A DNA stretch of 64,000 bases from a virus. Of this stretch, positions 1 to 29,850 are shown piece by piece. The stretch's first letter is position 1; the number at the start of each line of letters is the position of its first letter. The stretch is from positions 14,196-78,195 of IMG/VR virus record IMGVR_UViG_3300029365_000529, one strand, 5' to 3'. The position numbers and the translations under genes were made by a program. The notes under the pieces were generated by a model. It was not told where the DNA came from. It worked only from the letters and a program-made list of their open reading frames with translations, and ran no database searches.

Positions 1-163
1 TAATAGTAGAGTATAGTATTACAGATACTATTAAAGATTATGCATCATTAAAGAGGTTAAATAATAGTTATGTTTACTGGGATTGGGTTTCTTATGTTGA
101 AAGCGCAAATATAACTCGGTGGCTCTATATTGATGATTTACTGCCAAAGGAAGGAGGTAATCA

Positions 164-325
164 ATGAAAACATTTGTATTTGATATAATGCTCGACGGAA
201 GATTCATCTGCACGTTAAAGTATAAATATTGTGCGCTCTTCCCGATAGATTTTGAAGAACTAAAGAAGTTCATTCTCAGTAAGAAACCTTCTCTGAAAGG
301 AAAGGACTATAGAATTGCGTTTTGA
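164..325 (+). CDS. small hypothetical protein (53 aa)
   Basis: ATG 8 nt after a strong AGGAGG-like site (aaggaaggaggtaatcaATG). Short, no recognisable domain. Confidence 0.3.
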   Translation: MKTFVFDIMLDGRFICTLKYKYCALFPIDFEELKKFILSKKPSLKGKDYRIAF

Positions 326-327
326 TT

Positions 328-492
328 ATGAAAGAGCTTAAAGTTGGAGAAAGAATCACTCTTGAAGCAGTTGAGCAATATGGTTGTAGAGGTTGCTTCT
401 TTGAGGATAATCCAGTATGTATAAAATTTGCATGTTGTGAAGGTGTACGCTCAGATGGAAAATCGGTAATTTTTAAAGAAGTTAAGGAGTAA
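328..492 (+). CDS. small Cys-rich hypothetical protein (54 aa)
   Basis: ORF MKELKVGERITLEAVEQYGCRGCFFEDNPVCIKFACCEG..., tightly packed between neighbouring ORFs. Not in the provided track (<60 aa). Confidence 0.3.
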   Translation: MKELKVGERITLEAVEQYGCRGCFFEDNPVCIKFACCEGVRSDGKSVIFKEVKE

Positions 493-497
493 AGCGT

Positions 498-914
498 ATG
501 GATAAGTTATATATTCCTAGAGATTTGGTATATTTTGGAGGAGAAAAGGCTAAGGTATGGTTCTGTAATCCAAGTGCCGATGATTCTATTTATGTTAGAG
601 TTATAGAAAATGGAGGAGAAAATAGAATATGGAATGCTTCACTTAAAGAGGAAATTAGCCCTATTCCACTCACTCCTGAGGTTCTAGAGAAGAATGGATG
701 GAAAATTGAAGATGTAAACCCTAATGATTTAAGTAATATTGTGAGTAAAGGAATCATGTATAGAGCAATTAAGAACAAAGAAATACTTTTCTTTCAGAAA
801 GGAGCATCAGTTTTTACTTGTCCTTTGAATTGGAGAAAAATAGAAATCAAATATGTTCATGAACTCCAGCACCTTCTCTTCGGTTTAGGACTTAATTCAG
901 AAATGGAGGTGTAG
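498..914 (+). CDS. hypothetical early protein (138 aa)
   Basis: Six-frame ORF preceded by AAGGAG 8 nt upstream (gttaaggagtaaagcgtATG). Confidence 0.5.
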   Translation: MDKLYIPRDLVYFGGEKAKVWFCNPSADDSIYVRVIENGGENRIWNASLKEEISPIPLTPEVLEKNGWKIEDVNPNDLSNIVSKGIMYRAIKNKEILFFQKGASVFTCPLNWRKIEIKYVHELQHLLFGLGLNSEMEV

Positions 915-916
915 GT

Positions 917-1069
917 ATGGCATGTAGAAGTAGTTTAGGTTGTTTTGGATGCAAGTATCTAGAACATTATTACTATAGCACAGGAAATATGGACTGTAAA
1001 CTCAAAGGTCATATAACTTTGGGATTTGGAGATGATATGGGATGTGAAAAGTATGAAAGTAAAGTTTAA
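917..1069 (+). CDS. small Cys-rich hypothetical protein (50 aa)
   Basis: GGAGGTG 5 nt upstream of ATG; MACRSSLGCFGCKY...CKLKGH...GCEKY, possible zinc-binding mini-protein. Confidence 0.3.
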   Translation: MACRSSLGCFGCKYLEHYYYSTGNMDCKLKGHITLGFGDDMGCEKYESKV

Positions 1070-1095
1070 CGCCTTCGGGCATAAATAGTAGTAAT

Positions 1096-1236
1096 ATGGA
1101 TATTGTACCATCTTGTTTTTGCTGTAAGCATATGAAACTAAAAGATAGTTTTTATTGTGATGCTTATAATAAAAAAGTAGAAGAATCAGATTGCCACAAT
1201 GATGATAATCCAAAATTTGAAAGTGTATTTGAATAG
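1096..1236 (+). CDS. small Cys-rich hypothetical protein (46 aa)
   Basis: MDIVPSCFCCKHMKLKDSFYCD...CHNDD; Cys/His-rich, follows the previous mini-ORFs. Confidence 0.25.
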   Translation: MDIVPSCFCCKHMKLKDSFYCDAYNKKVEESDCHNDDNPKFESVFE

Positions 1237-1287
1237 TAACTAACCATCCTCTCCTGTAAAAGGGAGAGGGTAAAAAGAAAGAAGAAT

Positions 1288-1491
1288 ATGATTACAGAAA
1301 AGTTAATAAAAAAGGTGCTACGTAAGTGGTTAAAGAAGAAATTGTATATCAATGCTCCTATTAGCACAAACATAGCACGATTTGAATGGGTCTATAACTC
1401 ACACCTTAAAGAGTGGAGAGATAGAATGTGGGTAATTAAAAACTGCCCAGAAAATAGAGACAAGTGCCTTAATGAGTATCTTTACTCATAG
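1288..1491 (+). CDS. hypothetical protein (67 aa)
   Basis: Six-frame ORF, basic N-terminus. Confidence 0.4.
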   Translation: MITEKLIKKVLRKWLKKKLYINAPISTNIARFEWVYNSHLKEWRDRMWVIKNCPENRDKCLNEYLYS

Positions 1492-1667
1492 CTTTTGTTA
1501 ATCAATTCCACAAGGTCATAGAACTGCATCTTGGTCGTGAAAGTCTCACCATTAGATAACTTGATACAGCTATCACCATCCACCTCAAAGAAAGAGACAA
1601 TGTGGTCTGGGTTAATTGCACGGGTGTATGAATTATCATACGACTTCAAAGTAATTAAATTTTTCAT
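1482..1667 (-). CDS. hypothetical protein (61 aa)
   Basis: Minus-strand ORF convergent with and overlapping the end of 1288-1491. Confidence 0.3.
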   Translation of the reverse strand: MKNLITLKSYDNSYTRAINPDHIVSFFEVDGDSCIKLSNGETFTTKMQFYDLVELINKSYE

Positions 1668-1800
1668 ATAAATGTAATTTTTAAAATTAAGCGGTACAAA
1701 GATAGTAATAATATTCGAGAAGCAAGCAATTCTTTAGGTAATTTTAAAATTAAGCACTTTATTTTATCTGTGCTTGCTTCTCACTTTAAACATATATAAT

Positions 1801-1959
1801 ATGGCAAACAAGAAACAATATAGAAGTATGGATAAGAAAGAGAAATTAATCAATAGTCATATTGATAAGGCTATAGGCTATTCAGATAAGGCTCATTACG
1901 AGTTGCAAACGTTCTTCCATTTGTTGGAACAGATGGGGAACCCCTTATCAAAAATGTAA
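1801..1959 (+). CDS. small hypothetical protein (52 aa)
   Basis: Internal Met of track ORF 1774-1959 (MANKKQYRSMDKKEK...). Its 3' end lies inside the 72-bp direct repeat. Confidence 0.35.
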   Translation: MANKKQYRSMDKKEKLINSHIDKAIGYSDKAHYELQTFFHLLEQMGNPLSKM

Positions 1960-1982
1960 AAATATTAAAAGAATTATAGAGT

Positions 1983-2148
1983 ATGAAGAAGCAAATAATC
2001 TTAGACGAACAAGATATTAACGAATTTCACGAGGATGCAGACCATCTATGTTGGATATACGACAGAATGGTGCTCGGTCATAACGAAAACGAAAAATTCG
2101 ATTATATGCGCCGCTTTTTCAAAATAATCAAAAAGTTAAAGAATTTAT
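1983..2148 (+). CDS. small hypothetical protein (55 aa)
   Basis: MKKQIILDEQDINEFHEDADHLCWIYDRMVLGHNENEKFDYMRRFFKIIKKLKNL; begins right after repeat copy 1. Confidence 0.35.
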
Positions 2149-2152
2149 AGTT

Positions 2153-2518
2153 ATGGATAAATCAAAATTACATTCATCATTACTCTTCCTGATGCTAAAA
2201 CTGGAAGAGGCAAAGAGTAACCCGATGTCTGACAAGAACTTTGTTGCTGCATTGACAGAAGTGCTCAGATATTTCCGTGACAACGGAGAGTTAAAGAAAG
2301 CCTATGAAAGCCAAAAGGATTCTTTGGCAGATATGGCTAATAGCCCTTGGGCGAAACTGGTAATTGGCATACTTACCTCAAAAATGCAAGAAGACAAAGT
2401 TGATGCGGAGTTACCAGACATTGATTCTCTAATAAAGGAGAGTTCTTCTGATGAGTTCATCGAAAAGAAAATCAATGATGTTCTTGGTGATGATGGTGTA
2501 GAACTTAAAGAAGAATAA
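2153..2518 (+). CDS. hypothetical early protein (121 aa)
   Basis: Six-frame ORF, acidic and helical, in a tight operon. Confidence 0.5.
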   Translation: MDKSKLHSSLLFLMLKLEEAKSNPMSDKNFVAALTEVLRYFRDNGELKKAYESQKDSLADMANSPWAKLVIGILTSKMQEDKVDAELPDIDSLIKESSSDEFIEKKINDVLGDDGVELKEE

Positions 2519-2519
2519 T

Positions 2520-2816
2520 ATGATATTCTATAGATTTGGCGAAATACCTAAAAATGAGAAATCATGTATTTGGAAAGGTGAAGAAAAAGTTGGGGAAGAA
2601 TTAGGAGTTTCGGTTTATGAAGCTCATAAAAACATTAATGGGTTATATTCTCCAGTTTTACCTATGCCTACTAATACGAGCGCACTTGATACTTTTCTCC
2701 ATTTAATAAGATATTATAGTGGAAAGAAATATTTAGTAACAGGTGATGTTCTTCCATTTGTTGGAATGGATGGGGAACCCCTTATCAAAAATGTAAAAAT
2801 ATTAAAAGAATTATAG
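2520..2816 (+). CDS. hypothetical early protein (98 aa)
   Basis: Six-frame ORF; its 3' end lies in copy 2 of the 72-bp repeat, in a different reading frame from copy 1. Confidence 0.5.
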   Translation: MIFYRFGEIPKNEKSCIWKGEEKVGEELGVSVYEAHKNINGLYSPVLPMPTNTSALDTFLHLIRYYSGKKYLVTGDVLPFVGMDGEPLIKNVKILKEL

Positions 2817-2819
2817 CTT

Positions 2820-3611
2820 ATGAAAACAGAAGAATATGTAAACGTTATCAGAAATATGCGGACATTCTGTAATTTTGTAGAAGACGTTTACCCCGACCAA
2901 TATAGATTTGTATGTCAGCAGCATGATATTCCAGAGCGTGAAGCGATGGATATGTACGGCTATCTTCGCAAGATAGCTTGCGGACAGTATTGGTGCGTAA
3001 ATGATAAATCAGATGGATATTTCTACACCATGGTAAGCATGGCGCAGGAAGCTCATAAACTGCACGTATTGAATAGCATCATCAAGAACGTACCCACCAA
3101 CAACGGCGAGAAACCAAATATCCTCGCAATCTTTATTAAGAATGGTGAGTATTTTCAGCATGAGTTTGACCTGCAATGGCAGACTACGTTTATCGAAATA
3201 GCCGAAATGATAAAAAACGGCTACAAATTGGTGACTATTGCCCGTCAGGTAGATGATGTTGATGCCAAGGACTATGTAGGCAAGAACGATGGTAAGAAAT
3301 CGAATATCCCTATCTACGATGGCGATGTGATGCTTTGCTATGTCAGTAAGCCGGAATGGTGGAGCTCTGATTGTAAGAGAAGCGGTCTGTATCTATGCAA
3401 GGATGGTGTTTATTATCGTCTCGTCTATACTCCTGGTAAGGGTTACGTAAGGCACGATAAGCCTGATAAGGATGAGGACTTTGAGTTAGATATTGAAAAG
3501 AATGCCTTCAACAGTTACGTGATGACTATGAGTCAGAAATGGTATAAGCTGGGTAATATCCACGCTAGTATCGGATTTTTGATTGAAAAGCAAGAATATA
3601 AAAAAGAATAG
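2820..3611 (+). CDS. hypothetical protein (263 aa), partner of the downstream methyltransferase
   Basis: Long ORF with no recognised motif; stop lies 4 nt before the start of the DPPH methyltransferase gene. Confidence 0.55.
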   Translation: MKTEEYVNVIRNMRTFCNFVEDVYPDQYRFVCQQHDIPEREAMDMYGYLRKIACGQYWCVNDKSDGYFYTMVSMAQEAHKLHVLNSIIKNVPTNNGEKPNILAIFIKNGEYFQHEFDLQWQTTFIEIAEMIKNGYKLVTIARQVDDVDAKDYVGKNDGKKSNIPIYDGDVMLCYVSKPEWWSSDCKRSGLYLCKDGVYYRLVYTPGKGYVRHDKPDKDEDFELDIEKNAFNSYVMTMSQKWYKLGNIHASIGFLIEKQEYKKE

Positions 3612-3614
3612 CGT

Positions 3615-4082
3615 ATGAAACAAAGAATATTAGATATGTGTTGCGGATCTCGTATGTTTTATTTCGATAAGCAGGACCCACAGGTACTTTTTACCGACAT
3701 AAGAGAATATCACGACACATTATGTGATGGACGCAAATTAGACGTACAACCCGATATGATAGCCGATTGCACTAATTTGCCATTCGAAGATGAAACATTC
3801 GATATGGTAGTTTTCGACCCTCCTCATCTGCTAAAGGTAGGACAGAACTCATGGCTATGCAAGAAATATGGTAAGCTGCCCGAAAATTGGCAAGCATTCA
3901 TCAACGATTCTATCCATGAGGGCATGAGAGTACTGAAAACAAACGGAACGCTCATTTTTAAGTGGAACGAGCAGCAGATAAAGGTTAGTGATGTGCTAAA
4001 GGCTATCACCGATTACAAACCTATATTCGGACATCGTACCACCATCAAGAACCAAACTATTTGGATGGCATTCATGAAATAA
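3615..4082 (+). CDS. small SAM-dependent amino-methyltransferase (DPPH motif; N6A/N4C DNA or N2G RNA MTase class)
   Basis: Motif I-like LDMCCGSRMF followed by motif IV FDPPHL (D/N-P-P-Y/F/H family). Only 155 aa with no obvious target-recognition domain. Confidence 0.5.
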   Translation: MKQRILDMCCGSRMFYFDKQDPQVLFTDIREYHDTLCDGRKLDVQPDMIADCTNLPFEDETFDMVVFDPPHLLKVGQNSWLCKKYGKLPENWQAFINDSIHEGMRVLKTNGTLIFKWNEQQIKVSDVLKAITDYKPIFGHRTTIKNQTIWMAFMK

Positions 4083-4092
4083 ATAACCAACA

Positions 4093-4133
4093 ATCCCCAC
4101 CCAGCTATCACAGCCGAGTGGGGATTTCTTTTG
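4093..4133 (+). terminator. rho-independent terminator after the methyltransferase operon
   Basis: 8-bp stem ATCCCCAC/GTGGGGAT with 17-nt loop, followed by TTCTTTTG. Confidence 0.6.
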
Positions 4134-4191
4134 TAATGAAACAATCTACTACCTAATTAACACAACTAATAAACATGAAAAAAAGTAAAAT

Positions 4192-4503
4192 CTATACCAA
4201 TCTATCTACATATTTATCTAAATCTTTTTCGTACCAAACCAGCTCGGTCCATCCTTTCCGCTTTTTACCCTTTGGCAGCCTGCCTTCTTTCACAAGGCGG
4301 TCAAAGGTAGCCCTGGAAACATGAACATAGCCGCATGCCTCAGCCTTGCTGATAGGCTCGTCCTTATTAGCGATGCGGTGCAGAAAATCTAACATGAAAG
4401 CATTTTGCTGTTTGTTAGTTAAGCATCTTCCGCTCTGAATCCGCTCATGAAATTCCATCAGGAGCGAATCAATCATCTGCAGTTCTTCGCTAATCTTCGC
4501 CAT
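4192..4503 (-). CDS. helix-turn-helix DNA-binding protein (HTH_17/excisionase-like)
   Basis: ISKAEACGYVHVSRATFDRLVKEGRLPKG matches the MerR/excisionase-type HTH pattern; 103 aa. Confidence 0.5.
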   Translation of the reverse strand: MAKISEELQMIDSLLMEFHERIQSGRCLTNKQQNAFMLDFLHRIANKDEPISKAEACGYVHVSRATFDRLVKEGRLPKGKKRKGWTELVWYEKDLDKYVDRLV

Positions 4504-4506
4504 AAG

Positions 4507-4947
4507 CTAGCACTTTTTGTTTCTGTACCAGAGAGTGAACCCAATCGCGCAAGCCGCCAGTATAAACAGAAAGGCGATATAGCATCTGCCCAGTGACATC
4601 AGCCTTTGTTCGTTCTTCGTCAGTTGTCGCTCTATAGGATAAGGCACGGAGACTGAATCCGTCTTGATGATCGTGTCCGTCTTCACCTTATATATATTAT
4701 GATACCGGTCCCGGTAAACCACCTTGTTATGGAAAACCGTATCACCTTTCTGAAAAACATACACCGAATCCTTCATGTAGATACTATCCAACTTAGCAAA
4801 AGTATCAGTTCTGCATACGTATTCTGTTCTAACAGAAGGAACCTTGATATACTCCTTCGTCTTGCATCCTGTAAATGCCAATAGGATAATTCCAATCACC
4901 AAGCCGATGCAAGCCCATTTCCAAAACCTTATGTCATACCATTTCAT
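4507..4947 (-). CDS. candidate unimolecular spanin (N-terminal lipoprotein signal plus C-terminal transmembrane helix)
   Basis: Lipobox LLAFTGC near the N-terminus and hydrophobic C-terminus CYIAFLFILAACAIGFTLWY. Lies immediately downstream of the endolysin in the same operon. Confidence 0.4.
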   Translation of the reverse strand: MKWYDIRFWKWACIGLVIGIILLAFTGCKTKEYIKVPSVRTEYVCRTDTFAKLDSIYMKDSVYVFQKGDTVFHNKVVYRDRYHNIYKVKTDTIIKTDSVSVPYPIERQLTKNEQRLMSLGRCYIAFLFILAACAIGFTLWYRNKKC

Positions 4948-4950
4948 AAG

Positions 4951-5394
4951 CTATATCTCTTTGTATTCAACTTTAGCGTCAAAGCAAGGGCACTCCTTGA
5001 TTCTCTCCCAAGGATCCACCACGCCGTTATGGTTCCTGTCGGGCGAAATATCCCTATGCCCCAAGATTTCAGCATCCGGATATTTCTTCTTCAGCTGAGT
5101 GAGCAGAGTGATAAGCGATTTCTTCTGCTCCTCAGTTCTATTGTCTACCGCCTTTCCCTTCTTGTTGATACCGCCAACATAAGCCACATTGATAGCTGTA
5201 GCATTATATCCCTTCACGCCGTTGCTAACCATTTCTACCGGCAGCATCTGGTGAATCCCACCATCAGCAGTAATCACGTAATGATACCCTGGATTATTCC
5301 AGCCTTTGCGCTTAAACTCATCCCAAAGTTCCTTCACACACCATTTCTGAGAAGAGGCAGTGCAATGAACAAAAATTCTTTTAATCAGTCTCAT
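4951..5394 (-). CDS. N-acetylmuramoyl-L-alanine amidase endolysin (Amidase_2/PGRP, T7 lysozyme-like)
   Basis: Conserved Amidase_2 residues readable by eye: FVHCTAS, GYHYVI, KGYN, VGG, GHRD, CPCFD. Confidence 0.9.
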   Translation of the reverse strand: MRLIKRIFVHCTASSQKWCVKELWDEFKRKGWNNPGYHYVITADGGIHQMLPVEMVSNGVKGYNATAINVAYVGGINKKGKAVDNRTEEQKKSLITLLTQLKKKYPDAEILGHRDISPDRNHNGVVDPWERIKECPCFDAKVEYKEI

Positions 5395-5834
5395 TTTTTC
5401 TCCTCCTTTCCCTGCTCCTTCATAATCTCAGCAAAAGCCCTAGCCAAGTCTTCTTTATTTTCTAAGAGTATGCTGAAAGAACGTTCCTGCTTCCGTATCT
5501 CAGCCTTCTGCCAGCTTTTCTCCCTTACGCTTACAAATTCACAGAACACGCAATAGCCTGCCCATATCATAGAGAAGACAGGGAAGGGGAGAACCGTACA
5601 GGCTATCAGGTCTATGCAGACCGTCACCATGAAGGGAGAAAAGTATTTCCTCGCCTTGTCGCAAGTCTTCTTGAATCCTGTACTTGTCGTAGCCAGCCCG
5701 TTCTCTTTCGCTTTCTTGATACCGAAGAACAGGTCCACGCCCATAGAAATGATAAGAGCACCCATGCAGATGACAATAACCAATGCCGATCTGTACAGGT
5801 GCTCTTGTAAAAATGTATGTACTATCTCTGCCAT
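5391..5834 (-). CDS. putative holin (three predicted transmembrane helices)
   Basis: 147 aa with three hydrophobic helices and a charged C-terminus. Its stop overlaps the endolysin start in ATGA. Confidence 0.5.
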   Translation of the reverse strand: MAEIVHTFLQEHLYRSALVIVICMGALIISMGVDLFFGIKKAKENGLATTSTGFKKTCDKARKYFSPFMVTVCIDLIACTVLPFPVFSMIWAGYCVFCEFVSVREKSWQKAEIRKQERSFSILLENKEDLARAFAEIMKEQGKEEKK

Positions 5835-5860
5835 ATACCATTATTTATGATTAATGGCTA

Positions 5861-5903
5861 CAAAGATAAAAGGCTTTTCAATAGCTTTTGCCGTGTTCCA
5901 ACT
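5861..5903 (-). promoter_or_regulatory. late promoter: conserved GGTTGGAACACGGCAAAA motif plus -7 box TATCTTTG upstream of holin
   Basis: Motif at 5887-5903 (minus-strand reading); 17 nt downstream of it is TATCTTTG (TAnnTTTG), about 25 nt before the holin ATG. Confidence 0.5.
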
Positions 5904-6364
5904 TAGCTATTCATATACCACCAGATTTTATCTGTAGGGTGGTTTGTCGATTCGTCACAGAGGAAACTGATAGCCAGTTCCGAAATCCTTTTTCTTGTGG
6001 TATCTTTGTTCTTCGACCATTTGCCCACCACGTCTATATGGTCAGCATACATCTTATTCATCGTTACCGCAAAATCCCAGAAGTTGTAGTCCGGTATGTT
6101 CCAAGATAGCCGGTCATAATCATCCTTCAATTCATCAAACCCGAAGTAAGGAGCATACTTTTTGTGAACATCATCATCAAAATAATAGATGTTGGCGATG
6201 CAGGCTCTGCCCAGTTGCTCGTCAAAGTGATGCTTCCTTTCCATCCAGTAAAGCAGATTTCTCTGCACAATCCTCTCTTCTTCCTCTGTAAACCCGCACT
6301 CATCGTTTCTTAGCATCCCGAAGGCAGATTCTGCTATTCGATAGAGCGATTTTGATAAATCCAT
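5903..6364 (-). CDS. hypothetical protein (153 aa)
   Basis: Six-frame ORF; possible later start; partially overlaps 6300-6632 in another frame. Confidence 0.4.
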   Translation of the reverse strand: MDLSKSLYRIAESAFGMLRNDECGFTEEEERIVQRNLLYWMERKHHFDEQLGRACIANIYYFDDDVHKKYAPYFGFDELKDDYDRLSWNIPDYNFWDFAVTMNKMYADHIDVVGKWSKNKDTTRKRISELAISFLCDESTNHPTDKIWWYMNS

Positions 6365-6632
6365 AAGCGTAAAGCATTAAAGTGAATATGATAAACACAT
6401 GGTGCATCTCCAACTGCTCGGGAGTGATGAGCCAGTGCTGATAATACAATCTGATAGCGTTGATACCGAAAAAATAGAAGAACGGAATGCGGAAAATCCA
6501 GCAGTATCTGAAGAAGAAACTTACCGGTATCATGGTCAGTGGCATATAAATGTATGCCAGTACATAAATCCAGATGATGCAGTTTCCGTTGAAATCGGTA
6601 TCTACAACTGTTGGTCTAGGGATAGTGCCCAT
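6300..6632 (-). CDS. hypothetical membrane protein (110 aa)
   Basis: Very hydrophobic and aromatic-rich ORF; the overlap with the downstream ORF makes the exact boundaries uncertain. Confidence 0.3.
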   Translation of the reverse strand: MGTIPRPTVVDTDFNGNCIIWIYVLAYIYMPLTMIPVSFFFRYCWIFRIPFFYFFGINAIRLYYQHWLITPEQLEMHHVFIIFTLMLYAYGFIKIALSNSRICLRDAKKR

Positions 6633-6932
6633 AGTCCCATACGCCGTACCAGTGACCTAGCATCAATGGAATGGGTGCCCACTTTGCTAGAAGTTCATAG
6701 AACCTCCAAATCTTCCTACTCAATAAGCCTTCCATAACTAAGGCTTTCTCCTCTTCCGAGAGAGGTGTTTCCTGTTTTGTTCTCATTTTGTTATGATTTT
6801 ATGGTTTAATTTTACTTTTTGCTAACTTTTTCTGAGATTTACATCTCATTTTGCTACAAAATTAAACTTTTTCTTTCGTAACACCATGAAAATCTGTCTA
6901 ATATTAAACTTATTTAAATCTTTATGTTCTTA

Positions 6933-6964
6933 TTTGGTCATATTCTAAATAATATGTATATTTG
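6933..6964 (+). promoter_or_regulatory. Bacteroidota sigma-A-type promoter (TTTG-N20-TATATTTG)
   Basis: TTTG at 6933-6936, 20-nt spacer, TATATTTG at 6957-6964; ATG at 6988. Confidence 0.5.
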
Positions 6965-6987
6965 CAGCATCTTAATGCAGCATTTAT

Positions 6988-7443
6988 ATGGCAAGAGCAA
7001 ATTACGAATTGATTGACAGACAGAGGGATGATCTGATGAAGGCGTATCGGGAGATAGCTCCTAATTGCCATTCTCAACAGGAGGCTTGGGAAAAGGTGGT
7101 TCATTCTCCTGCCCCCAGATACTATGTTTCTCCCAAAAGAGCTTGGGATATACTCCGCAGAATGGCAGTCGGCGATTTCTCAAAGGTGGATAGCATGAAG
7201 CCGATTCGGCAGAAGTTATACTATACGCTGTTCAATAGGATGAACGAAATGACGCAGCGAAAGGAATTCGTGGGCAAATCTTTATGGTTTATCTGCCAGT
7301 TCCTTGTTTCTGAGCCTGCACCCGAGTTCTTTATCCAGCCAAGTAATCTCAAATTCATTTTCGCTTACTATAAGAAGTATGGAAAAAATTACAGAGAAAT
7401 GGACCTTCGTAAGAAGAAACTTTCGAACAAAGCTGGTGCTTAG
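6988..7443 (+). CDS. hypothetical protein (151 aa)
   Basis: ORF directly downstream of a consensus promoter. Confidence 0.45.
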   Translation: MARANYELIDRQRDDLMKAYREIAPNCHSQQEAWEKVVHSPAPRYYVSPKRAWDILRRMAVGDFSKVDSMKPIRQKLYYTLFNRMNEMTQRKEFVGKSLWFICQFLVSEPAPEFFIQPSNLKFIFAYYKKYGKNYREMDLRKKKLSNKAGA

Positions 7444-7861
7444 CATAATCTGCCTCATTCTGTGTACTTGGCATGTCGGTTTTTATCCCGGTTGCCCATG
7501 GCAGAATCATATCCTGTATAGCTTCTTCCATGTCAACGGATTTCATCTTGCCGTAAACCTTCTGGTGCTTTGGCAGATAAAGAACGATATGAAACCAGTC
7601 ACTTCTCTGGCTGTTGCCTCTGTCGCTAGTCTGCTGCCCATGTATGTTAGTCAGCCTACAATGGGGCTTTCCGGTTTCCTATTCGCTTCCTTTGGTTTGA
7701 TGTGGGGTAGGACAGGACGATGGAAAGAGGCATTAAAGAAAGCGATGCCGTTCATTCTGTTCACGATGATCCTGAGTAATGTCAACGGACTTCTGCATCT
7801 TTACTGCTTCGTATTAGGCTATATCGTAGCATATTGCGTAAATAATATCAAAAACAGATAA
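7379..7861 (+). CDS. polytopic membrane protein, possibly rhomboid-like
   Basis: Internal Met of track ORF 7304-7861. GLSGFLFASFG (GxSG-like) and a later LHLYCFVLGY (His in a transmembrane helix) echo the rhomboid Ser/His dyad. The start is uncertain because it overlaps the previous ORF. Confidence 0.3.
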   Translation: MEKITEKWTFVRRNFRTKLVLSIICLILCTWHVGFYPGCPWQNHILYSFFHVNGFHLAVNLLVLWQIKNDMKPVTSLAVASVASLLPMYVSQPTMGLSGFLFASFGLMWGRTGRWKEALKKAMPFILFTMILSNVNGLLHLYCFVLGYIVAYCVNNIKNR

Positions 7862-7980
7862 CACACATATAAGAAGAATCATGTTTTTAAAAATGTATTT
7901 CATAACTCATTTTAAAGGCGACCACTCGTGATGAGCAGCCGCCTTTTTCATGTTATTATAAATTAGCGCGTATGAAAGAA

Positions 7981-10638
7981 TTATCTCATTTTGTCTTCTC
8001 GTCTGCTTTGTACCTCTACTATACTTCCAGCAAAGGAATCAGCAGCCTTAAAGTTCTGCAGCGTATACTTGAAAGTAAAGTACTTCCAAGGCTTACCAGC
8101 CAAGCTTGGCAGCTTGCACCAGTGCTTGCAGTCGTTACTTCCGTATATCTCCAGCCCAATCGTACCTTCGTCCGAATCAAACAGATGCTTCACCGCTCTC
8201 AGCGATTTCAACGTCATGCTGCCGCCCAGTTTCAAAGGTCTGGTAGTAAATGACCCGCTATAGCTTTCCGTATCTTCGTTGATGTCTGGCTTTGACGTGA
8301 GTGAATAGACGTTTCCGTTAGTATCTTGTATCAGATTATCCGGATAGTCATTCACTACCGCCTGTGCCTCTATGCCGCTATTCACCATCGAGAAGGTCTT
8401 ATCCACCATATTATATATGTATTGGTATGATTTCCCTTTGCTGAATATTCTCAATATGGAGTCTCTGTAATCGTAGGCGATAAGGCATTCTTTCAGGAAA
8501 TCCAGGAACTTGCCTTCACCGAAGGTTGCAAAGTTTCTCGGCGCTCTTCCCCTCATCTGTTCACTTATGCAGGCTACGCTTCCACCGCTTGCCGCCATCA
8601 GTCCTTTCTTTGAAGCAAAGAACACAAGCCTGTCCGTCGGCACCAGTGGCGAATCCTCATTACATACCTCTCTTGATATTGGATAGGCTCTACTATATAG
8701 TCCTTCTGAGTTAACCGACAAGCCGTAGATACCTTCGTCCGTAAATACCATCAATGGATATTGACCGAACTGACCTTGACTTACCGCCTCCGTGTTGGCA
8801 ATAATTCCGAGTATCTTTCCGGTTCCAACCGTATTATCTCCCGATGCCTCAAATACAAATGGGTTATTGACTACTGAGGTGAAAATCTGAGAGTTCAGAT
8901 CTTCTATTTCATTTTCTATACTAGGTAAGGAAATATTATCTTCCCACCCAATAGTATTATCTGGTAGAGCCATTTTATAAGAACCATTTAATAAAGGGTG
9001 AGGCTGCAACTTACTCTTAATTCCTCTATTATTCTTAACATTATATACAATAACTTCGGTAGCATTTGGGTCAGGGTAGAAAAACCATCCGTTTAGCGTA
9101 CACTTTGGAGCCTTACCTTCTTTAGATTCTACCCAACGTGACATAGAGCCAGATTCGATATGAACATAATATTTATAAGAATCAATATCTTCACCTTTTA
9201 ATGCGCAAAAAGAGCTAAACCCTTCAAACGGACTTCTGTATACTCCGATAGCGTTTAATCTTCCATTGTATGGATACATTTTTTTAAAAACATAATGTGC
9301 CCATCCGTAATAATCATCCTTTTTTAGCTGCTCCTGCGTTTCTAATGTTGATAGAACGCCATCATCTATTTTGAGAGCCGAGCTTATCCCATCTACATCT
9401 TCCGACATCACGTTAAGTTGCGATATTTTATAGAACACAGTATCTTTCTTTAATTCTTCTGCTATTTTATCCTTCTTTTTTAAACTAGGTATGATTCGCA
9501 TACTTGGCTCATCCGTATAACCATCTCTGCTATATTTATGTTCAGTATAATTGTCAGGTCCAACATCATCATTCCATGTCATTCCATAAACCTCATCAAG
9601 GTACCCGAATTTCCAACCTTTTTCTAATTTATAAGGCATTACACCCTTTGTGGCAAAAAAAACGATTTCTTTTACAATATCAACCCAGTCTTCTTTTTGG
9701 GGTATTGATACAGCCGCTGTTAGACTTGATCCATACAAGGTAAAGTAAGCTGTTGTGTTTCCAATATGCGAATGATGGTTTCCTGTAACACATGGGTAAC
9801 AAATCACCGGATTTGAAATCCTGGCATAAGTCCCATCAAAGAGACGTAAGGCATACCTTGCATAAAAAGGAAAGCAGAAAAGATTTTTTTCTTTTGCTTT
9901 ATTTATAATAGATGATACATGACCAACAACAGCATCTTGAAATAAGTTTTCGTTGTTATCATTATCGTTTGTTATAGCATAAGCTTCGTAGTCTTCTTCT
10001 TTGACAGGAGTATTGTCATTTATCGTAACCGTTTGCTCTCCGAAATCACCACTATTCTTTATATATATCAACTTATGTATTTTACATACATTTCCAAAGT
10101 CGTCATAGCTTACTTTAAGTGTTTTGTGATTAACAAAACCTTTATATCTGATAGGTGTATCTGCTTCAATAGGCGTACTTGGTGATAGAGAAAACACCAC
10201 ATTAGGTGTAGGAATCTCTGTACCTAAATCTTTATACTTTCCACCTTTAAATAGCAGATAATGCAAGCCTTCATTTGTTGCAACAGCAAGTGTATTGCCT
10301 ATACTTTTTACGTCATAAACGGTTCCTACATTGAAACTTTTCGTTACTCCATCTGGTGGGCTTACAATATTTCCACTATCATCTTTGGTATACCAGTATA
10401 TATTCGTCGTACCATCATAGGCAATGATATTCTCATAGTCTGCCATCTTGTGAACGTACATTATCTTATAAGGAACGTTGCCAATACTCACCCCTTTCTG
10501 TACCGCCTTCATTTCTCCATCCTTAAAGATAAATCCGTCACTCTCCAGCAGTTCAGAATCATCTGAAAGCAAGTCGCTAGGCACATTCGTCATGCCCTTG
10601 CTAAAACTCAAAGTTTGTCTTTCTAAGTTTCTTTCCAT
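7981..10638 (-). CDS. large virion-associated protein (885 aa), function unknown, possibly tail or receptor-binding
   Basis: Long ORF immediately downstream of the large terminase; beta-rich composition and no catalytic motif recognised. Confidence 0.55.
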   Translation of the reverse strand: MERNLERQTLSFSKGMTNVPSDLLSDDSELLESDGFIFKDGEMKAVQKGVSIGNVPYKIMYVHKMADYENIIAYDGTTNIYWYTKDDSGNIVSPPDGVTKSFNVGTVYDVKSIGNTLAVATNEGLHYLLFKGGKYKDLGTEIPTPNVVFSLSPSTPIEADTPIRYKGFVNHKTLKVSYDDFGNVCKIHKLIYIKNSGDFGEQTVTINDNTPVKEEDYEAYAITNDNDNNENLFQDAVVGHVSSIINKAKEKNLFCFPFYARYALRLFDGTYARISNPVICYPCVTGNHHSHIGNTTAYFTLYGSSLTAAVSIPQKEDWVDIVKEIVFFATKGVMPYKLEKGWKFGYLDEVYGMTWNDDVGPDNYTEHKYSRDGYTDEPSMRIIPSLKKKDKIAEELKKDTVFYKISQLNVMSEDVDGISSALKIDDGVLSTLETQEQLKKDDYYGWAHYVFKKMYPYNGRLNAIGVYRSPFEGFSSFCALKGEDIDSYKYYVHIESGSMSRWVESKEGKAPKCTLNGWFFYPDPNATEVIVYNVKNNRGIKSKLQPHPLLNGSYKMALPDNTIGWEDNISLPSIENEIEDLNSQIFTSVVNNPFVFEASGDNTVGTGKILGIIANTEAVSQGQFGQYPLMVFTDEGIYGLSVNSEGLYSRAYPISREVCNEDSPLVPTDRLVFFASKKGLMAASGGSVACISEQMRGRAPRNFATFGEGKFLDFLKECLIAYDYRDSILRIFSKGKSYQYIYNMVDKTFSMVNSGIEAQAVVNDYPDNLIQDTNGNVYSLTSKPDINEDTESYSGSFTTRPLKLGGSMTLKSLRAVKHLFDSDEGTIGLEIYGSNDCKHWCKLPSLAGKPWKYFTFKYTLQNFKAADSFAGSIVEVQSRREDKMR

Positions 10639-13802: not shown

Positions 13803-14594
13803 TTATACCTCCTTTGCTACGGTTGCTTCTACTTCCACTTCCAGTTTATCGCTGTGTCTGGAGAATAGAGTGATGGTTGCTACACCTGTATTGATAGGCT
13901 TCAGCCAGAAAGCATGTGGCTCCTGACTTCTGTGTACTTCCAGTATACTAGGGTCACTGCTTCTTGCCTCAATATCATCAATGGTTCCATCGTCAATAGA
14001 GTAGGATAGGGTAACTTCCATATCGTCAATACGTATGGTTACTGCTCCGTCCTCTTCGCTTCCGTCCACCTTGGCGGTCAGATGTTGGGTGTATGGAATA
14101 GTAGGAACTGCCGGACCACTCAGAACGAAACATCTGCGAATATTCTGTTCGTCAAATGTCAATGACTGCAAGTAAGGTTCAGCCTGTTTAAGGTTGGTAG
14201 TTTTTAACCACCACTGGTATATCATATAGTCCTCTACATACTTTGCTACCAATCTTGCCAGAGTGTCAGAGAGTGTTCCGTTGCATCTGCGTGATACGAC
14301 AATAACAAACTCTACTATATCATCATCCTTGTCATTGTAGTATATAACGTTATCGCCTGATGTCTGAGCGTTTGGAGCCAGATAGTCCGCAAGTATAACC
14401 TTTGTTATCTCCAATGCTGATTGAAAATCGTGCGTCAACGTATTTTCGTGCACAGCCTCGTCGCCAGCTGCTTCATTAAAACTCATCTTGATGGCTCTAT
14501 CATCTGTAGCACCATCTATCTTAGCCTTTAGGTAGGTTGCCCTCTTAACCTCGTCAACTACTACCGATTTGATAATTTGAAATTTTAATATCAT
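13803..14594 (-). CDS. protein with C-terminal Ig-like (Big_2-type) domain, possible capsid decoration protein
   Basis: C-terminal SSDPSILEVHRSQ...INTGVATITLFSRHSDKLEVEVEATV resembles the Big_2 consensus. Confidence 0.45.
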   Translation of the reverse strand: MILKFQIIKSVVVDEVKRATYLKAKIDGATDDRAIKMSFNEAAGDEAVHENTLTHDFQSALEITKVILADYLAPNAQTSGDNVIYYNDKDDDIVEFVIVVSRRCNGTLSDTLARLVAKYVEDYMIYQWWLKTTNLKQAEPYLQSLTFDEQNIRRCFVLSGPAVPTIPYTQHLTAKVDGSEEDGAVTIRIDDMEVTLSYSIDDGTIDDIEARSSDPSILEVHRSQEPHAFWLKPINTGVATITLFSRHSDKLEVEVEATVAKEV

Positions 14595-21018: not shown

Positions 21019-21297
21019 ATGGAGTATGTATCTACGAATTATAGCGAAGAAGAACTGGCATGGGTCTCCCCGGAGATAACCTTGCAGCGTGACATCTACT
21101 TGATGATTAAGCTAAAGCGCCCAGGGAAACTGGTAATCAGACAGGATAGGGGCGATGGCAAGAAGCCTCGGGTTCCCATTCGTGCCCACAAGAACACCTG
21201 CGAGTTCAAGCTTCGCCTTCGGGTGATTCCTGAAACCATAAAGATTCAGATATTCACTTCATCAGAACCAAAAGAAATCAAATATGCCTACATTTAG
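21019..21297 (+). CDS. hypothetical protein (92 aa)
   Basis: Small basic ORF; its end overlaps the tail fibre start. Confidence 0.4.
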   Translation: MEYVSTNYSEEELAWVSPEITLQRDIYLMIKLKRPGKLVIRQDRGDGKKPRVPIRAHKNTCEFKLRLRVIPETIKIQIFTSSEPKEIKYAYI

Positions 21298-24200
21298 AGA
21301 TGATCAAAAATTAGGTTGCAAGGTGCCGATGATGAAAACAGACGACATCAACGACCAAGCCATCACGAAAGACAAGATTCGTGACGGCAATGTTACGACC
21401 GAGAAGCTCGCTGATGGTGCAGTTTCTACGGATAAACTGCCTGATGGAGCAATCAAGACTTCAAAGATAGCGGATGAGAATATCACGACCGAGAAGTTAG
21501 CTGAAGGTGCTGTGGAAACTTCTAAAATCGCCGACCAGAATGTAACCAGTGAAAAAATCGCCAACCAGTCGGTAGATAACTCCAAACTTTCACCAGAGGC
21601 AGTCACCTACGATAAGGTTAAGGATAAGGCTATCATCACAGAGAAGCTCAATGATCGTGCTGTAACCACAGAGAAGGTAGAGGAGAAAGCTATTACAAAC
21701 CCGAAACTTGGCAACCAGTCGGTTGATGGCAGAGTAGTTCGTGAGGCATCCTTGGAGTCCAGGCATTTCGCCAACGAATCTGTAACTACGGAAAAAATCA
21801 AAGACGACTCAGTTACAAATGAAAAGGTTGCAGACGATACGCTTGGCATCGAGAAGTTCGACCCAGAGCTTCGCAAAACCATTCAAGCCGCCACTGGTCT
21901 CCCTGAGGATTTAAGTCAGATGATCCAAGATGTAGATAAGTCTGTCAAGCAACTGAAAGAGAAGGACACAGACCTCCAGTCTCAGATTGACGATAAGCAG
22001 CAGCAAATCACCGCCAACGATGATGATATTTCATTGTTGCAGACTCGCAGTACTCAGATGGAGGAAGCCATCAAGGGCATTTCCGCAAGCGGTGGTGCAA
22101 GCCAAGCCTCAGCAGTAACATACGAGAACACAGAGAGTGGTCTTGATTCTGTAACTGCACAGGGAGCCATTGATGAACTTGCAAGAAAGAAAATCAACAA
22201 GGAAAATATTGCCCAAGAGTTCGGTGATTCAGAGGACAAGGTAGTCTCCCAGTTTGCTCTTCCATTCCGCGAAATTGAATCTCCAGAGTTCCTCAAAGCT
22301 ATAGTGGATTCAGATGATAAGGTTCTGTTTGGTTTCTACAGAGCAACTGGCAAGCCTTATTATCCTCTCAATGAAATGTATCATGTCATTCAGAATGAGG
22401 AATACTTTGCTGCTTGGGTTACTACTGACGATAAAGTAGTACTTGGTCTTAGAAGAGACGGACAAATCATTGGTGAAATCCATGCAGTCAATGCCTTGAA
22501 GAAAGTTATCTCTCAGTTTCAATCAGATTTAGCTTCTTTGCAGGAGAAGGTAGGTACAATAGATACCAACCTCAAAGAACTTCTTGACGTTTTTTCTTTG
22601 CAGGATAACGAGGAATATCTTGCAGTTGAGCAAGATGCAGAAGGCAAGGTATTGTCTGCAACAAATCCTGATGGTTCAAAGATATTTTATATTCCACTGA
22701 TTCCTAAATCTTCAATTAAGTTTGATGATAGGACAATATATGAAGATGAGGTGGAAGATTACAAAGAACTACTGCTTGATTCTGATGACAAAATTCTACG
22801 CTATACAGATGAAAATGGTGTTATACATGAAAATAGAGAAATTGTTTTCAGCTCTGCTAACTTAGGTTCAAATGAATCAGAAAAGGAGTTGGATGTGCCT
22901 CGTTCAATGAATCTTCCTAAGTATGGCTATACAGATATAAAAGAAGAAACTTTTTATTTGACAGCTAATGCAGGATATTCTGATAAGGATGGTATTTTAG
23001 CTATGCTTGTCAATGAAGATACGCAAGCAAATGCTCAAAAAGGATTGACTCCCTATAAATACTTTGTTAAGTCAACGCTTCAAAATACTGATGGTGTATA
23101 TTCTGTGACATCTGAAAGTGTGTCTTTGAATTTCTATGTTCCTTCTGATGTAAAGGAGGTCGGAGGAAAGTCTTATGTAACTTCCTCACTTACAAAGGGT
23201 AGTGATGGCTCGTACACCGTAAATCCAACTTCTATTGAAGTTACAAAAATTGTAGATAAGCCTAATGTAGGAACATGGGAAATCAGTAAAAAGACCAAGC
23301 ATTGGTGTGTAGTTGACATAGACTTTGGCAGCTATCTTAAAGGAACATATAACGTATTGGTATCCTTTCAAGGGGCATCAACCTTATATAACAGACAGAA
23401 GAACTTGAGATATGCTTTTGTTAAATCAGATTATAAAAGCAAGGTGAAATTGAAAATTGGAGAGTTATTGAAAGTGGACAAGTTCAACTTGAAGTCTTAT
23501 TACTCTGATGATACAAAACTGAAAGAGCCAATTATCTTTCGTCTGTATTTACAAGCTAAAGAATTACGTAATTTCAATGAGCAATATCCCTGGAGTGCTT
23601 CATCCATCATTGCAACTGGTGCAACTGGTATCATAAAATCTTTTCCTGTATGCACATCTGTAGGAGGTGAGTTCTATGGTGTTCAGTTCTTTGGCTATAA
23701 GAAAGACAAGGATAACTACATGCTCTCTGGTGATGAAGATGGAATGATTATCAGCGGAGGCGTAGGCTGTAACTGGGCTAAATTTGACTGGAGTACGTGG
23801 GAAGATGAAATGAATGATGACCCAACAGAAAGCAACAGGGTAGCTGTAGAGAAATTCTACCAATTCATTAACGGAAGTGATTTCACTAAGGAAAACGCTC
23901 CTAAGCACATGAATATCAATGACTGGATAGACTATTTCATTTTCATTCAGTTGTTCAGGCTCAGAGATAATGACATTCACAACCTTATTCTCTATAGCGG
24001 AGCAGACAAGAAAATTTTCTCTCCATTCCTTTACGACTTGGATTTATCATTCTTTGTTTACAGCTTTAACTTGGAAGCAAACCCAACAAATACTGTTTGG
24101 CTAAAGCTGAAATCATTGTATTGGGAAGAGATATGTGCAAGATACAAGGAACTCAGAAGTTCCGTTCTGACACAAGGAAACTTCAATATGATAGTCAGTG

Positions 24201-24349
24201 ACCTACAAAGCAGCATTGATTACTCTGACTTTGAAAAAGGAGTTAAGAAATGGGGACAAAGAGATACTAAGGTGACAACTGGATATTTAGAAGAATTATT
24301 CGGTGAGTTACTAAAAACGTTTGATGTATATTTTAATTTAAACAAATAA
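21284..24349 (+). CDS. tail fibre or receptor-binding protein with N-terminal 11-residue tandem repeats
   Basis: About 16 consecutive repeats of the form xxVTTEKLADGAV (ITKDKIRDGNV, TTEKLADGAVS, TDKLPDGAIKT and so on), then a coiled-coil segment and a large C-terminal domain; 1021 aa. Confidence 0.7.
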   Translation: MPTFRDDQKLGCKVPMMKTDDINDQAITKDKIRDGNVTTEKLADGAVSTDKLPDGAIKTSKIADENITTEKLAEGAVETSKIADQNVTSEKIANQSVDNSKLSPEAVTYDKVKDKAIITEKLNDRAVTTEKVEEKAITNPKLGNQSVDGRVVREASLESRHFANESVTTEKIKDDSVTNEKVADDTLGIEKFDPELRKTIQAATGLPEDLSQMIQDVDKSVKQLKEKDTDLQSQIDDKQQQITANDDDISLLQTRSTQMEEAIKGISASGGASQASAVTYENTESGLDSVTAQGAIDELARKKINKENIAQEFGDSEDKVVSQFALPFREIESPEFLKAIVDSDDKVLFGFYRATGKPYYPLNEMYHVIQNEEYFAAWVTTDDKVVLGLRRDGQIIGEIHAVNALKKVISQFQSDLASLQEKVGTIDTNLKELLDVFSLQDNEEYLAVEQDAEGKVLSATNPDGSKIFYIPLIPKSSIKFDDRTIYEDEVEDYKELLLDSDDKILRYTDENGVIHENREIVFSSANLGSNESEKELDVPRSMNLPKYGYTDIKEETFYLTANAGYSDKDGILAMLVNEDTQANAQKGLTPYKYFVKSTLQNTDGVYSVTSESVSLNFYVPSDVKEVGGKSYVTSSLTKGSDGSYTVNPTSIEVTKIVDKPNVGTWEISKKTKHWCVVDIDFGSYLKGTYNVLVSFQGASTLYNRQKNLRYAFVKSDYKSKVKLKIGELLKVDKFNLKSYYSDDTKLKEPIIFRLYLQAKELRNFNEQYPWSASSIIATGATGIIKSFPVCTSVGGEFYGVQFFGYKKDKDNYMLSGDEDGMIISGGVGCNWAKFDWSTWEDEMNDDPTESNRVAVEKFYQFINGSDFTKENAPKHMNINDWIDYFIFIQLFRLRDNDIHNLILYSGADKKIFSPFLYDLDLSFFVYSFNLEANPTNTVWLKLKSLYWEEICARYKELRSSVLTQGNFNMIVSDLQSSIDYSDFEKGVKKWGQRDTKVTTGYLEELFGELLKTFDVYFNLNK
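21340..21890 (+). repeat. 33-bp periodic tandem repeat inside the tail fibre gene
   Basis: Encodes the 11-aa repeats above; the repeat units are divergent at nucleotide level. Confidence 0.6.
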
Positions 24350-29810: not shown

Positions 29811-29850
29811 GAAAGGAGTGAGCCTTGCGCCCACTCCTTTATTTATTTAT
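29811..29850. terminator. bidirectional terminator shared by the lipoprotein operon and the giant gene
   Basis: Stem GGAGTGAGC/GCCCACTCC (one mismatch) with loop CTTGC, A-run upstream and TTTATTTATTTAT downstream. Confidence 0.6.

Follow-up and report, generated by a model that had tools for sequence, protein, structure and literature searches.

A short direct repeat bordering accessory genes of a podovirus-like phage as a probable by-product of mosaic recombination

The 64,000-nucleotide stretch analysed here, to which we refer as the window, spans positions 14,196 to 78,195 of the IMG/VR virus record IMGVR_UViG_3300029365_000529 and comes from a podovirus-like phage that has a P22-type portal and a 5,767-residue polyvalent protein. 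Near its start, five open reading frames (ORFs) on the plus strand, which we call gpA′, gpB, gpC, gpD and gpE, are associated with a near-perfect direct repeat, the subject of this analysis. gpA′ (1801–1959) is a truncated, chimeric frame encoding 52 residues if read from the ATG at 1801, or 43 residues from the ATG at 1828. It is followed by gpB (1983–2150, 55 residues), the first gene of a seemingly deletable block, by gpC (2153–2518, 121 residues), a recombinant gene, and by gpD (2520–2816, 98 residues), which encodes a conserved phage protein and is the source gene of the repeat. The right-hand neighbour, gpE (2820–3611, 263 residues), stands directly after gpA′ in the deletion variants described below. 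Searches of Pfam and PHROG with the products of gpA′, gpB, gpC, gpD and gpE gave no match. Relatives of gpD are present at 46 loci in IMG/VR with amino acid identities of 61–98%, some of them on contigs of 100–550 kb, and the family alignment contains 44 invariant columns. The loci and contigs with which the window was compared, designated here by L numbers, are human-gut-type metagenome contigs; at L071–L080, the exact gpB protein occurs between a full-length gpD and gpC. The exact 121-residue gpC has no record in the protein look-up, where the recorded call uses an internal start, and the 108-residue version was matched. A megablast search of window positions 1–9000 against 50,697 phage records returned a single match (2%).

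The repeat is 69 nt in length, and its two copies, both on the plus strand, are located at 1911–1979 (copy 1) and 2748–2816 (copy 2). They differ at two positions that lie side by side, reading CA in copy 1 (1930–1931) and TG in copy 2 (2767–2768), and their starts are 837 bp (279 × 3) apart. The TAG stop codon of each copy is followed by three nucleotides and then by the ATG of the next gene, that of gpB at 1983 and that of gpE at 2820. A longer version of the repeat, of 77 nt (1911–1987 and 2748–2824), can be drawn through this stop–start spacer and a shared ATGAA. The extension of copy 1 (1980–1987) consists of the spacer AGT and the ATGAA of gpB, and that of copy 2 (2817–2824) of the spacer CTT and the ATGAA of gpE; the two additional mismatches are both in the 3-nt spacer. 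A search allowing up to three mismatches found only these two copies in the window, whereas 100 shuffles that preserve dinucleotide composition contained none. Translation of copy 1 follows the ORF 1801/1828–1959, which ends in TFFHLLEQMGNPLSKM before its stop codon, while copy 2 forms the C-terminus of gpD, which ends in DVLPFVGMDGEPLIKNVKILKEL before its own. An earlier reading of this DNA, made from the sequence only, had correctly recognised a near-perfect repeat with two mismatches whose copies are translated in different frames and are each followed at once by the start of another ORF. Its figures require correction. The length was given as 72 nt, although the sequence quoted has 69; the coordinates, 1907–1978 and 2746–2817, are off by 2–4 nt; and the spacing was given as 840 bp. 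Of the three small genes said to be bracketed, gpB and gpC do lie inside, but copy 2 is itself the end (3′) of the third, gpD. The inverted repeat TTCCA…TGGAA is present but trivial, having a stem of 5 bp.

The two copies differ in standing. In every relative there is one gpD tail, at the end of gpD, and copy 2 is therefore native coding sequence of the conserved gpD gene, forming the 3′ end of an intact gpD in which the TG marker corresponds to Met84. Copy 1, when read in the gpD frame, consists of the last 22 codons of gpD and the stop codon, and in the other frame it provides the tail of gpA′. A tblastn search with gpD matches this locus at residues 72–98 only (1896–1976), and there is no gpD paralogue elsewhere in the 64-kb window. 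Together with the 8 nt that follow it, copy 1 is identical at 77 of 77 positions to the end of gpD and the start of gpB in L003/L004, L071–L075 and L077–L080, in all of which a complete gpD stands before gpB. To its left, positions 1806–1909 of the window are 97–98% identical to the 5′ part of gpA in L007 and L076, and this identity ends at 1909. Because of the full match to the gpD–gpB junction on one side and the halt of gpA identity on the other, copy 1 is recognised as an orphan gpD tail, lying out of frame behind a truncated gpA. The 52-residue ORF is accordingly a chimera composed of the N-terminal part of gpA, which in its native form has 101 residues in L007 and 110–119 residues in L076, and 15 residues derived from the gpD tail in a shifted frame. 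The identical 52-residue product is encoded by nine contigs. A scan of JGI metagenomes with a 30-mer across the junction of gpA and the tail gave no match.

The undeleted gene order is seen in L076, where a 67-residue gene, a 61-residue gene on the minus strand, gpA, three small genes, gpD, gpB and gpC follow one another. In this locus, 1116 bp separate the two halves of the junction; these are absent from the window, and their loss was an illegitimate deletion. The junction maps to 1909–1911 on the plus strand, with gpA sequence up to 1909 (GCAAA), a C at 1910 and the gpD tail from 1911 (GCAAA-C-GTTCTT), and microhomology across it amounts to 1 nt at most. Copy 1 is thus a sub-segment of a gene that is intact elsewhere, with an unrearranged relative (L076) and a definable breakpoint. 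It is identical in all six contigs that carry it; being young, it offers little variation from which constraint could be judged. That the orphan tail has been kept for some benefit, for example the provision of the native translation-start context of gpB, is speculation. The relation between the frames of gpA′ and the tail is accounted for by the deletion junction. A programmed ribosomal frameshift joining gpA′ to the gpD-frame tail was considered and rejected, a regular-expression scan of 1828–1959 having found no slippery heptamer of the form X XXY YYZ. At the other edge of the gpA fragment, the 22 nt that precede the ATG at 1828 (1806–1827) are homologous to the 3′ end (…KQETI and stop) of a different upstream gene in L007. 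By this homology, the left edge of the fragment is a further mosaic junction, situated just inside the end of the neighbouring gene.

The source of the second, intact gpD is indicated by a comparison of mismatches along gpC. Four loci with the order gpD–gpB–gpC (L073, L075, L077 and L079) have no mismatch to the window over 1911–2194 and about 20 thereafter within gpC. L058, in which the order is gpC–gpD–gpE, shows the complementary pattern, differing from the window at sites up to 2174 and agreeing with it throughout 2175 to at least 2830; over 2148–4200, its identity to the window is 99.8%. These complementary maps make the window a recombinant, in which a homologous crossover between 2175 and 2194, at the 5′ end of gpC on the plus strand, joined the gpD–gpB–gpC and gpC–gpD–gpE lineages. 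In the population at large, the CA allele is found where gpB follows gpD and the TG allele where gpE follows, and most of the gpD–gpE loci fetched (L051–L054, L056–L059, L061–L065 and L070) combine TG with the gpE flank. The differences between the copies are therefore lineage alleles and not new mutations. Their association with the right-hand neighbour, CA with gpB and TG with gpE, argues against an intragenomic tandem duplication of gpD–gpB–gpC after which the first gpD would have decayed and the second gpB–gpC been replaced. Such a duplication would agree with the closeness of both gpD copies to the same clade (97–100% to L003/L004) and with a spacing divisible by 3. However, gpC is a clean chimera of two sampled lineages, and none of the 81 loci examined comes from a genome with two full-length copies of gpD. 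We consider a tandem duplication very unlikely.

Variants without the block between the copies exist. A look-up of the exact 52-residue gpA′ product and of gpE in public assemblies identified three contigs, L050 (ERR12454801), L060 (ERR14842126) and L055 (SRR34978422), in which gpE stands 24 nt after gpA′. In each of these, exactly the 837-bp gpB–gpC–gpD block is gone and a single hybrid tail is left. This tail joins the gpA junction to the gpE flank in all three, with the CA marker in L050 and L060 and the TG marker in L055; the exchange, or its resolution, thus lay on either side of the marker. A synthetic precise deletion of the window differs from L060 at two bases and from L050 at seven. 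To the right of the tail, L055 and the window are 100% identical over 1453 nt; to the left, they differ only at the two marker and two flank positions. The sequence-only reading had proposed that excision variants be sought and that the repeat might be the boundary of a recombination cassette. The presence or absence of precisely the 837 bp between the copies supports the proposal in a plainer form, that of general homologous recombination at a repeat made by chance. On this evidence, the repeat appears to be a live recombination substrate, and gpB–gpC–gpD would constitute a facultative, deletable cassette.

The repeat was also examined for the properties expected of a dedicated DNA or RNA element. 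In 41 unique gpD genes, the synonymous-site identity of the tail (last 23 codons) is 0.747 and that of the remaining codons 0.776; among 76 sliding windows, the tail comes 50th in this measure. Only amino acid identity is slightly higher in the tail, 0.85 versus 0.77. The proposal that the copies are conserved at the DNA or RNA level rather than as protein is therefore not upheld, since the tail has no excess of synonymous conservation and copy 2 is ordinary coding sequence. RNA folds calculated for both copies, with or without flanks, gave z-scores of −0.3 to −1.0, which are not significant against shuffles, and the minimum-energy structures of copy 1 and copy 2 differ. A search of Rfam with the repeat produced no match even at E = 1. 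Structure prediction, which had been recommended in connection with a possible RNA regulatory role, yields no fold more stable than those of shuffled sequences and, with the empty Rfam search, leads us to reject that role. Scanning revealed no sigma-70-type promoter inside 1911–1987 or 2748–2824, the scan being blind to promoters of the Bacteroidota type, and no intrinsic terminator inside the repeat. A role as the target of a site-specific recombinase or homing endonuclease fares no better. No domain of a recombinase or homing endonuclease turned up either in the cassette or, at some 30 related loci, among the genes called within about 5 kb, where the integrase, resolvase, HNH, GIY-YIG and LAGLIDADG families are unrepresented. 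Moreover, the exchange point is not fixed, as recombinants keep either CA or TG behind the same left junction.

The 69-mer could still be a cis-acting element under selection, as an RNA structure, a promoter or terminator, a translation-initiation region or the target of a recombinase or homing endonuclease. The A-rich end of the tail lies immediately before the next start codon in both copies and could double as a translation-start context; a boundary motif, AAAGAA..stop..ATG[AG]A, is present at four boundaries between 1968 and 3620 compared with 0.49 sites expected in the whole window; and promoters of the Bacteroidota type fall outside the sigma-70 scan. Against this stand the synonymous-site, folding, Rfam, promoter, terminator and domain results and the variable exchange point, together with the presence of two copies only, one of which is explained by the mapped deletion. 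Selection on such an element is, in our judgement, highly improbable. The synonymous-site, folding, Rfam and promoter and terminator tests give no sign of a dedicated element at the DNA or RNA level, and we conclude that the likeness of the copies reflects recent common descent and not selection on a DNA or RNA signal.

Overall, the repeat is likely to be a by-product of phage mosaic recombination, that is, a scar and a cassette boundary used by general homologous recombination, and not a dedicated element. The scheme that emerges from sequence comparison is as follows. One of the parental lineages had the order gpA, three small genes, gpD (with Thr84, encoded by ACA), gpB and gpC. An illegitimate deletion of 1116 bp joined gpA at codon 37, in a shifted frame, to the final 23 codons of this gpD, so that the orphan tail came to stand immediately before gpB. 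A crossover in gpC (2175–2194) with a lineage of the order gpC, gpD (with Met84, encoded by ATG), gpE and methyltransferase placed an intact gpD downstream. The deletion and the crossover, which may have taken place in either order, together produced direct repeats of 69–77 nt at a distance of 837 bp. The variants lacking the 837 bp would then have arisen through homologous recombination or single-strand annealing between the copies, and annealing along all 69 nt would form a heteroduplex over the two-base marker, from which both the CA and the TG outcome could result. A RecT-family annealing protein of the phage or the RecA of the host would probably promote the exchange, as suggested by the presence of the former and by the role of its family in other phages. 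On contig L049, whose sequence agrees with the window at 100% over 1961 nt, a RecT gene (PF03837) is encoded some 3.4 kb upstream of window position 1; RecT is absent from the 64-kb window itself, the gene being located upstream on the same phage. The longest perfect block of the repeat, 48 nt, exceeds the minimal efficient pairing segments of RecA (31–34 bp) and Red-beta (23–27 bp) (PMC3945230). Rad52-like phage recombinases, including two RecT proteins, are efficient on short and diverged homologies (PMC3945230).

Some observations weigh against this scheme. The base C at 1910 matches neither of the sampled parents. All of the 31-mers of L050 and L060 are also present in the window, so that by k-mer content these two contigs could have come from a de Bruijn graph that was traversed wrongly. 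Independent samples of the window-type arrangement may be few, as L051, one of the contigs that support it, is possibly the same genome as the window. The direction of the 837-bp difference is itself inferred; the deletion type could be ancestral and the cassette inserted, with a similar number of events.

The second and third of these points bear on the possibility that assembly produced the duplication or the deletion variants, as does the derivation of all three deletion contigs from one assembly pipeline with k = 31, for which the evidence is at the contig level. The two-copy arrangement is spanned by a 75.6-kb ENA scaffold (L051/L062) that is 100% identical to the window, and the gpC product of the two-copy type is present on three contigs of 50–200 kb; samples of the window type are SRR5056844 and ERZ28634544. 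The copies differ at two bases, and their flanks are different and biologically coherent. The chimeric gpC calls for reads bridging an identity interval of 20 nt, a length below that of any assembler k-mer. The k = 31 contig L049 ends at window position 1961, exactly where the k-mers common to both copies begin, and a break at this point is what a true two-copy genome predicts. As for the deletion type, L050 is separated from the window by 7 single-nucleotide differences and represents another strain, as does L060, and L055 has 11 junction-spanning 31-mers that are absent from the window. Because of these, L055 is not a chimera of the de Bruijn graph and needs real molecules. The assembly artefact that the sequence-only reading had named as grounds for discarding the repeat does not apply, and we regard an artefactual origin as extremely improbable.

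The fourth point leads to a reversal of the last step, in which a deletion-type genome would be the older and gpB–gpC–gpD would have been inserted at the orphan tail by a Campbell-type crossover of a circular or concatemeric gpD–gpB–gpC segment, creating the repeats. Excision and insertion are formally symmetric, and the count of events would be equal in both directions. L052 has gpA and gpD(TG)–gpE on one genome, from which a single deletion could give the L055 type, and the orders D–B–C, C–D and B–C–D are circular permutations of one ring. However, the gpA fragment of the window is 98.4% identical to that of L076, which is of the D–B–C lineage, and only 93% identical to that of L052; the gpC crossover at 2175–2194 accounts for the second gpD without a circle; and no circular junction was observed. 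We judge insertion to be unlikely. A further notion, also unlikely, is that the gpD tail and the A-rich stop–start boundaries form a portable recombination site, a coding analogue of the T4 promoter–stem-loop elements discussed below. A gpB–gpC–gpD mini-circle with a hybrid tail would then re-insert at the gpD tails of co-infecting relatives, which would explain both the occurrence of one tail before at least seven unrelated genes and the orders D–B–C, C–D and B–C–D.

The scheme of deletion and crossover can be placed in a wider setting. In the 81 loci, the genes that come after the gpD tail include at least seven unrelated ones, namely gpB, gpE, a YopX-family gene, a methyltransferase gene and three others; gpD thus ends at a mosaic boundary that recurs.

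Features of a similar kind are present nearby. The gpE gene (2820–3611) is flanked by a degenerate direct repeat of about 34 nt (2799–2843 and 3590–3635) that extends over the stop–start boundary and the first codons, with the sequence AAAAGAAT(TAT)AGC(T/G)TATGAAA(A)CA(G)AAGAATAT. In L067 (2260–2345), the methyltransferase gene comes directly after gpD and gpE is precisely missing, a second polymorphism of the cassette type beside the first. The boundary motif, in the form AAAGAA..stop..N1-3..ATG[AG]A, occurs at four consecutive gene boundaries of the plus strand (1968, 2138, 2805 and 3603); in the whole window, on both strands, there are five sites compared with 0.49 expected from block shuffles. 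These may reflect A-rich contexts of translation start that also serve as microhomology when genes are shuffled. At L063 (6096–7732), a gene for a 401-residue transposase (PF00872, Transposase_mut) is situated at the 3′ end of the methyltransferase gene, the product of which is shortened from 155 to 134 residues, and it looks like an insertion sequence inside a phage genome. Pfam matches to Tad2-like (PF11195) or Sequestin (PF21825) families, which we take to be anti-defence families, lie near gpD at L066 (7353–7595), L079 (977–1465), L067 (650–889), L071 (3051–3290), L074 (3247–3474) and L075 (2841–3068). The early region around gpD may be an island of anti-defence or accessory genes, and gpB, gpC and gpD could belong to that class.

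Farther along the window, a 1,021-residue ORF at 21284–24349 on the plus strand has a C-terminal CotH kinase-family domain (PF08757). The polyvalent protein is encoded on the minus strand by a single ORF of 5,767 residues at 29847–47150, which takes up 27% of the window; its Pfam matches are to a ddrB-like ParB domain, a methyltransferase, ResIII/AAA_34 with a Strawberry-notch helicase C-terminal domain, and LPD38, and are typical of phage and plasmid polyvalent proteins.

Among known systems, the closest concept is modular shuffling mediated by promoter early stem-loop (PeSL) elements. These are intergenic motifs of about 100 bp, containing a promoter and a stem-loop, in T4-type phages, where recombination between them deletes or inserts ORFan genes and may release mini-circles (Arbiol et al. 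2010, PMC2839356; Comeau et al. 2014, PMC4122927). In the window, as with PeSLs, small ORFan genes of a hyperplastic early region lie between direct repeats of about 70–100 bp, presence and absence variants with one hybrid repeat exist (L050, L055 and L060), and the repeat takes in the stop codon of one gene and the start codon of its successor. PeSLs, however, are intergenic and multi-copy and have a sigma-70 promoter and a terminator stem-loop, whereas the repeat described here is coding, is present in two copies in 64 kb and gives no promoter or stem-loop signal; moreover, its second copy is a mapped deletion scar. Membership of the PeSL class fails because there is no promoter and no stem-loop and the repeat is neither intergenic nor multi-copy. 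It is better filed under generic phage mosaicism, made up of an illegitimate junction and relaxed homologous recombination, together with deletion between direct repeats.

Relaxed homologous recombination at short conserved segments, driven by annealing proteins of the Rad52-like type, Red-beta, RecT and Erf among them, gives rise to phage mosaicism (De Paepe et al. 2014, PMC3945230). The likeness to this process includes a crossover in a gpC of about 96% identity between two co-circulating lineages, exchanges in 48–69 nt of homology, a RecT-family gene, and new gene combinations in a variable early region. Unlike in those studies, the role of RecT is here inferred, and the system is known from uncultured human-gut-type metagenome contigs.

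Spontaneous deletions between short direct repeats are familiar from the classical deletion mutants of T7, T4 and lambda. As in those mutants, a dispensable accessory block bounded by repeats is lost here, and the variants coexist in nature; they come, however, from metagenomes of different samples and not from laboratory selection, and it can be traced how the repeat itself arose. Loss of an accessory ORFan block has been described in cyanophage S-PM2d (PMC4503421). The junction between gpA and the gpD tail lies inside two genes, lacks microhomology and leaves both a chimeric ORF (gpA′) and an orphan fragment. Hendrix and colleagues are said to have put forward an illegitimate-recombination model with gene remnants or partial duplicates at mosaic junctions, from which the present case shows no difference of substance. 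It is a mosaic junction of the textbook type for which both parental states have been sampled.

For those who annotate such genomes, the 52-residue ORF is to be treated as a chimera, and for those who assemble them, contigs built with k = 31 break, or may mis-join, at the repeat. The loss of the block in natural variants points to the dispensability of the accessory genes gpB, gpC and gpD. The locus gives a view, at the level of single bases, of the rebuilding of a phage accessory region, for which natural samples supply both parental states as well as the derived products. A short direct repeat arose through an illegitimate deletion together with a homologous crossover, and this repeat would then have rendered a three-gene block facultative. 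It is a worked example of phage mosaicism, in which ordinary mosaic evolution, with no new mechanism, would account for what is seen.

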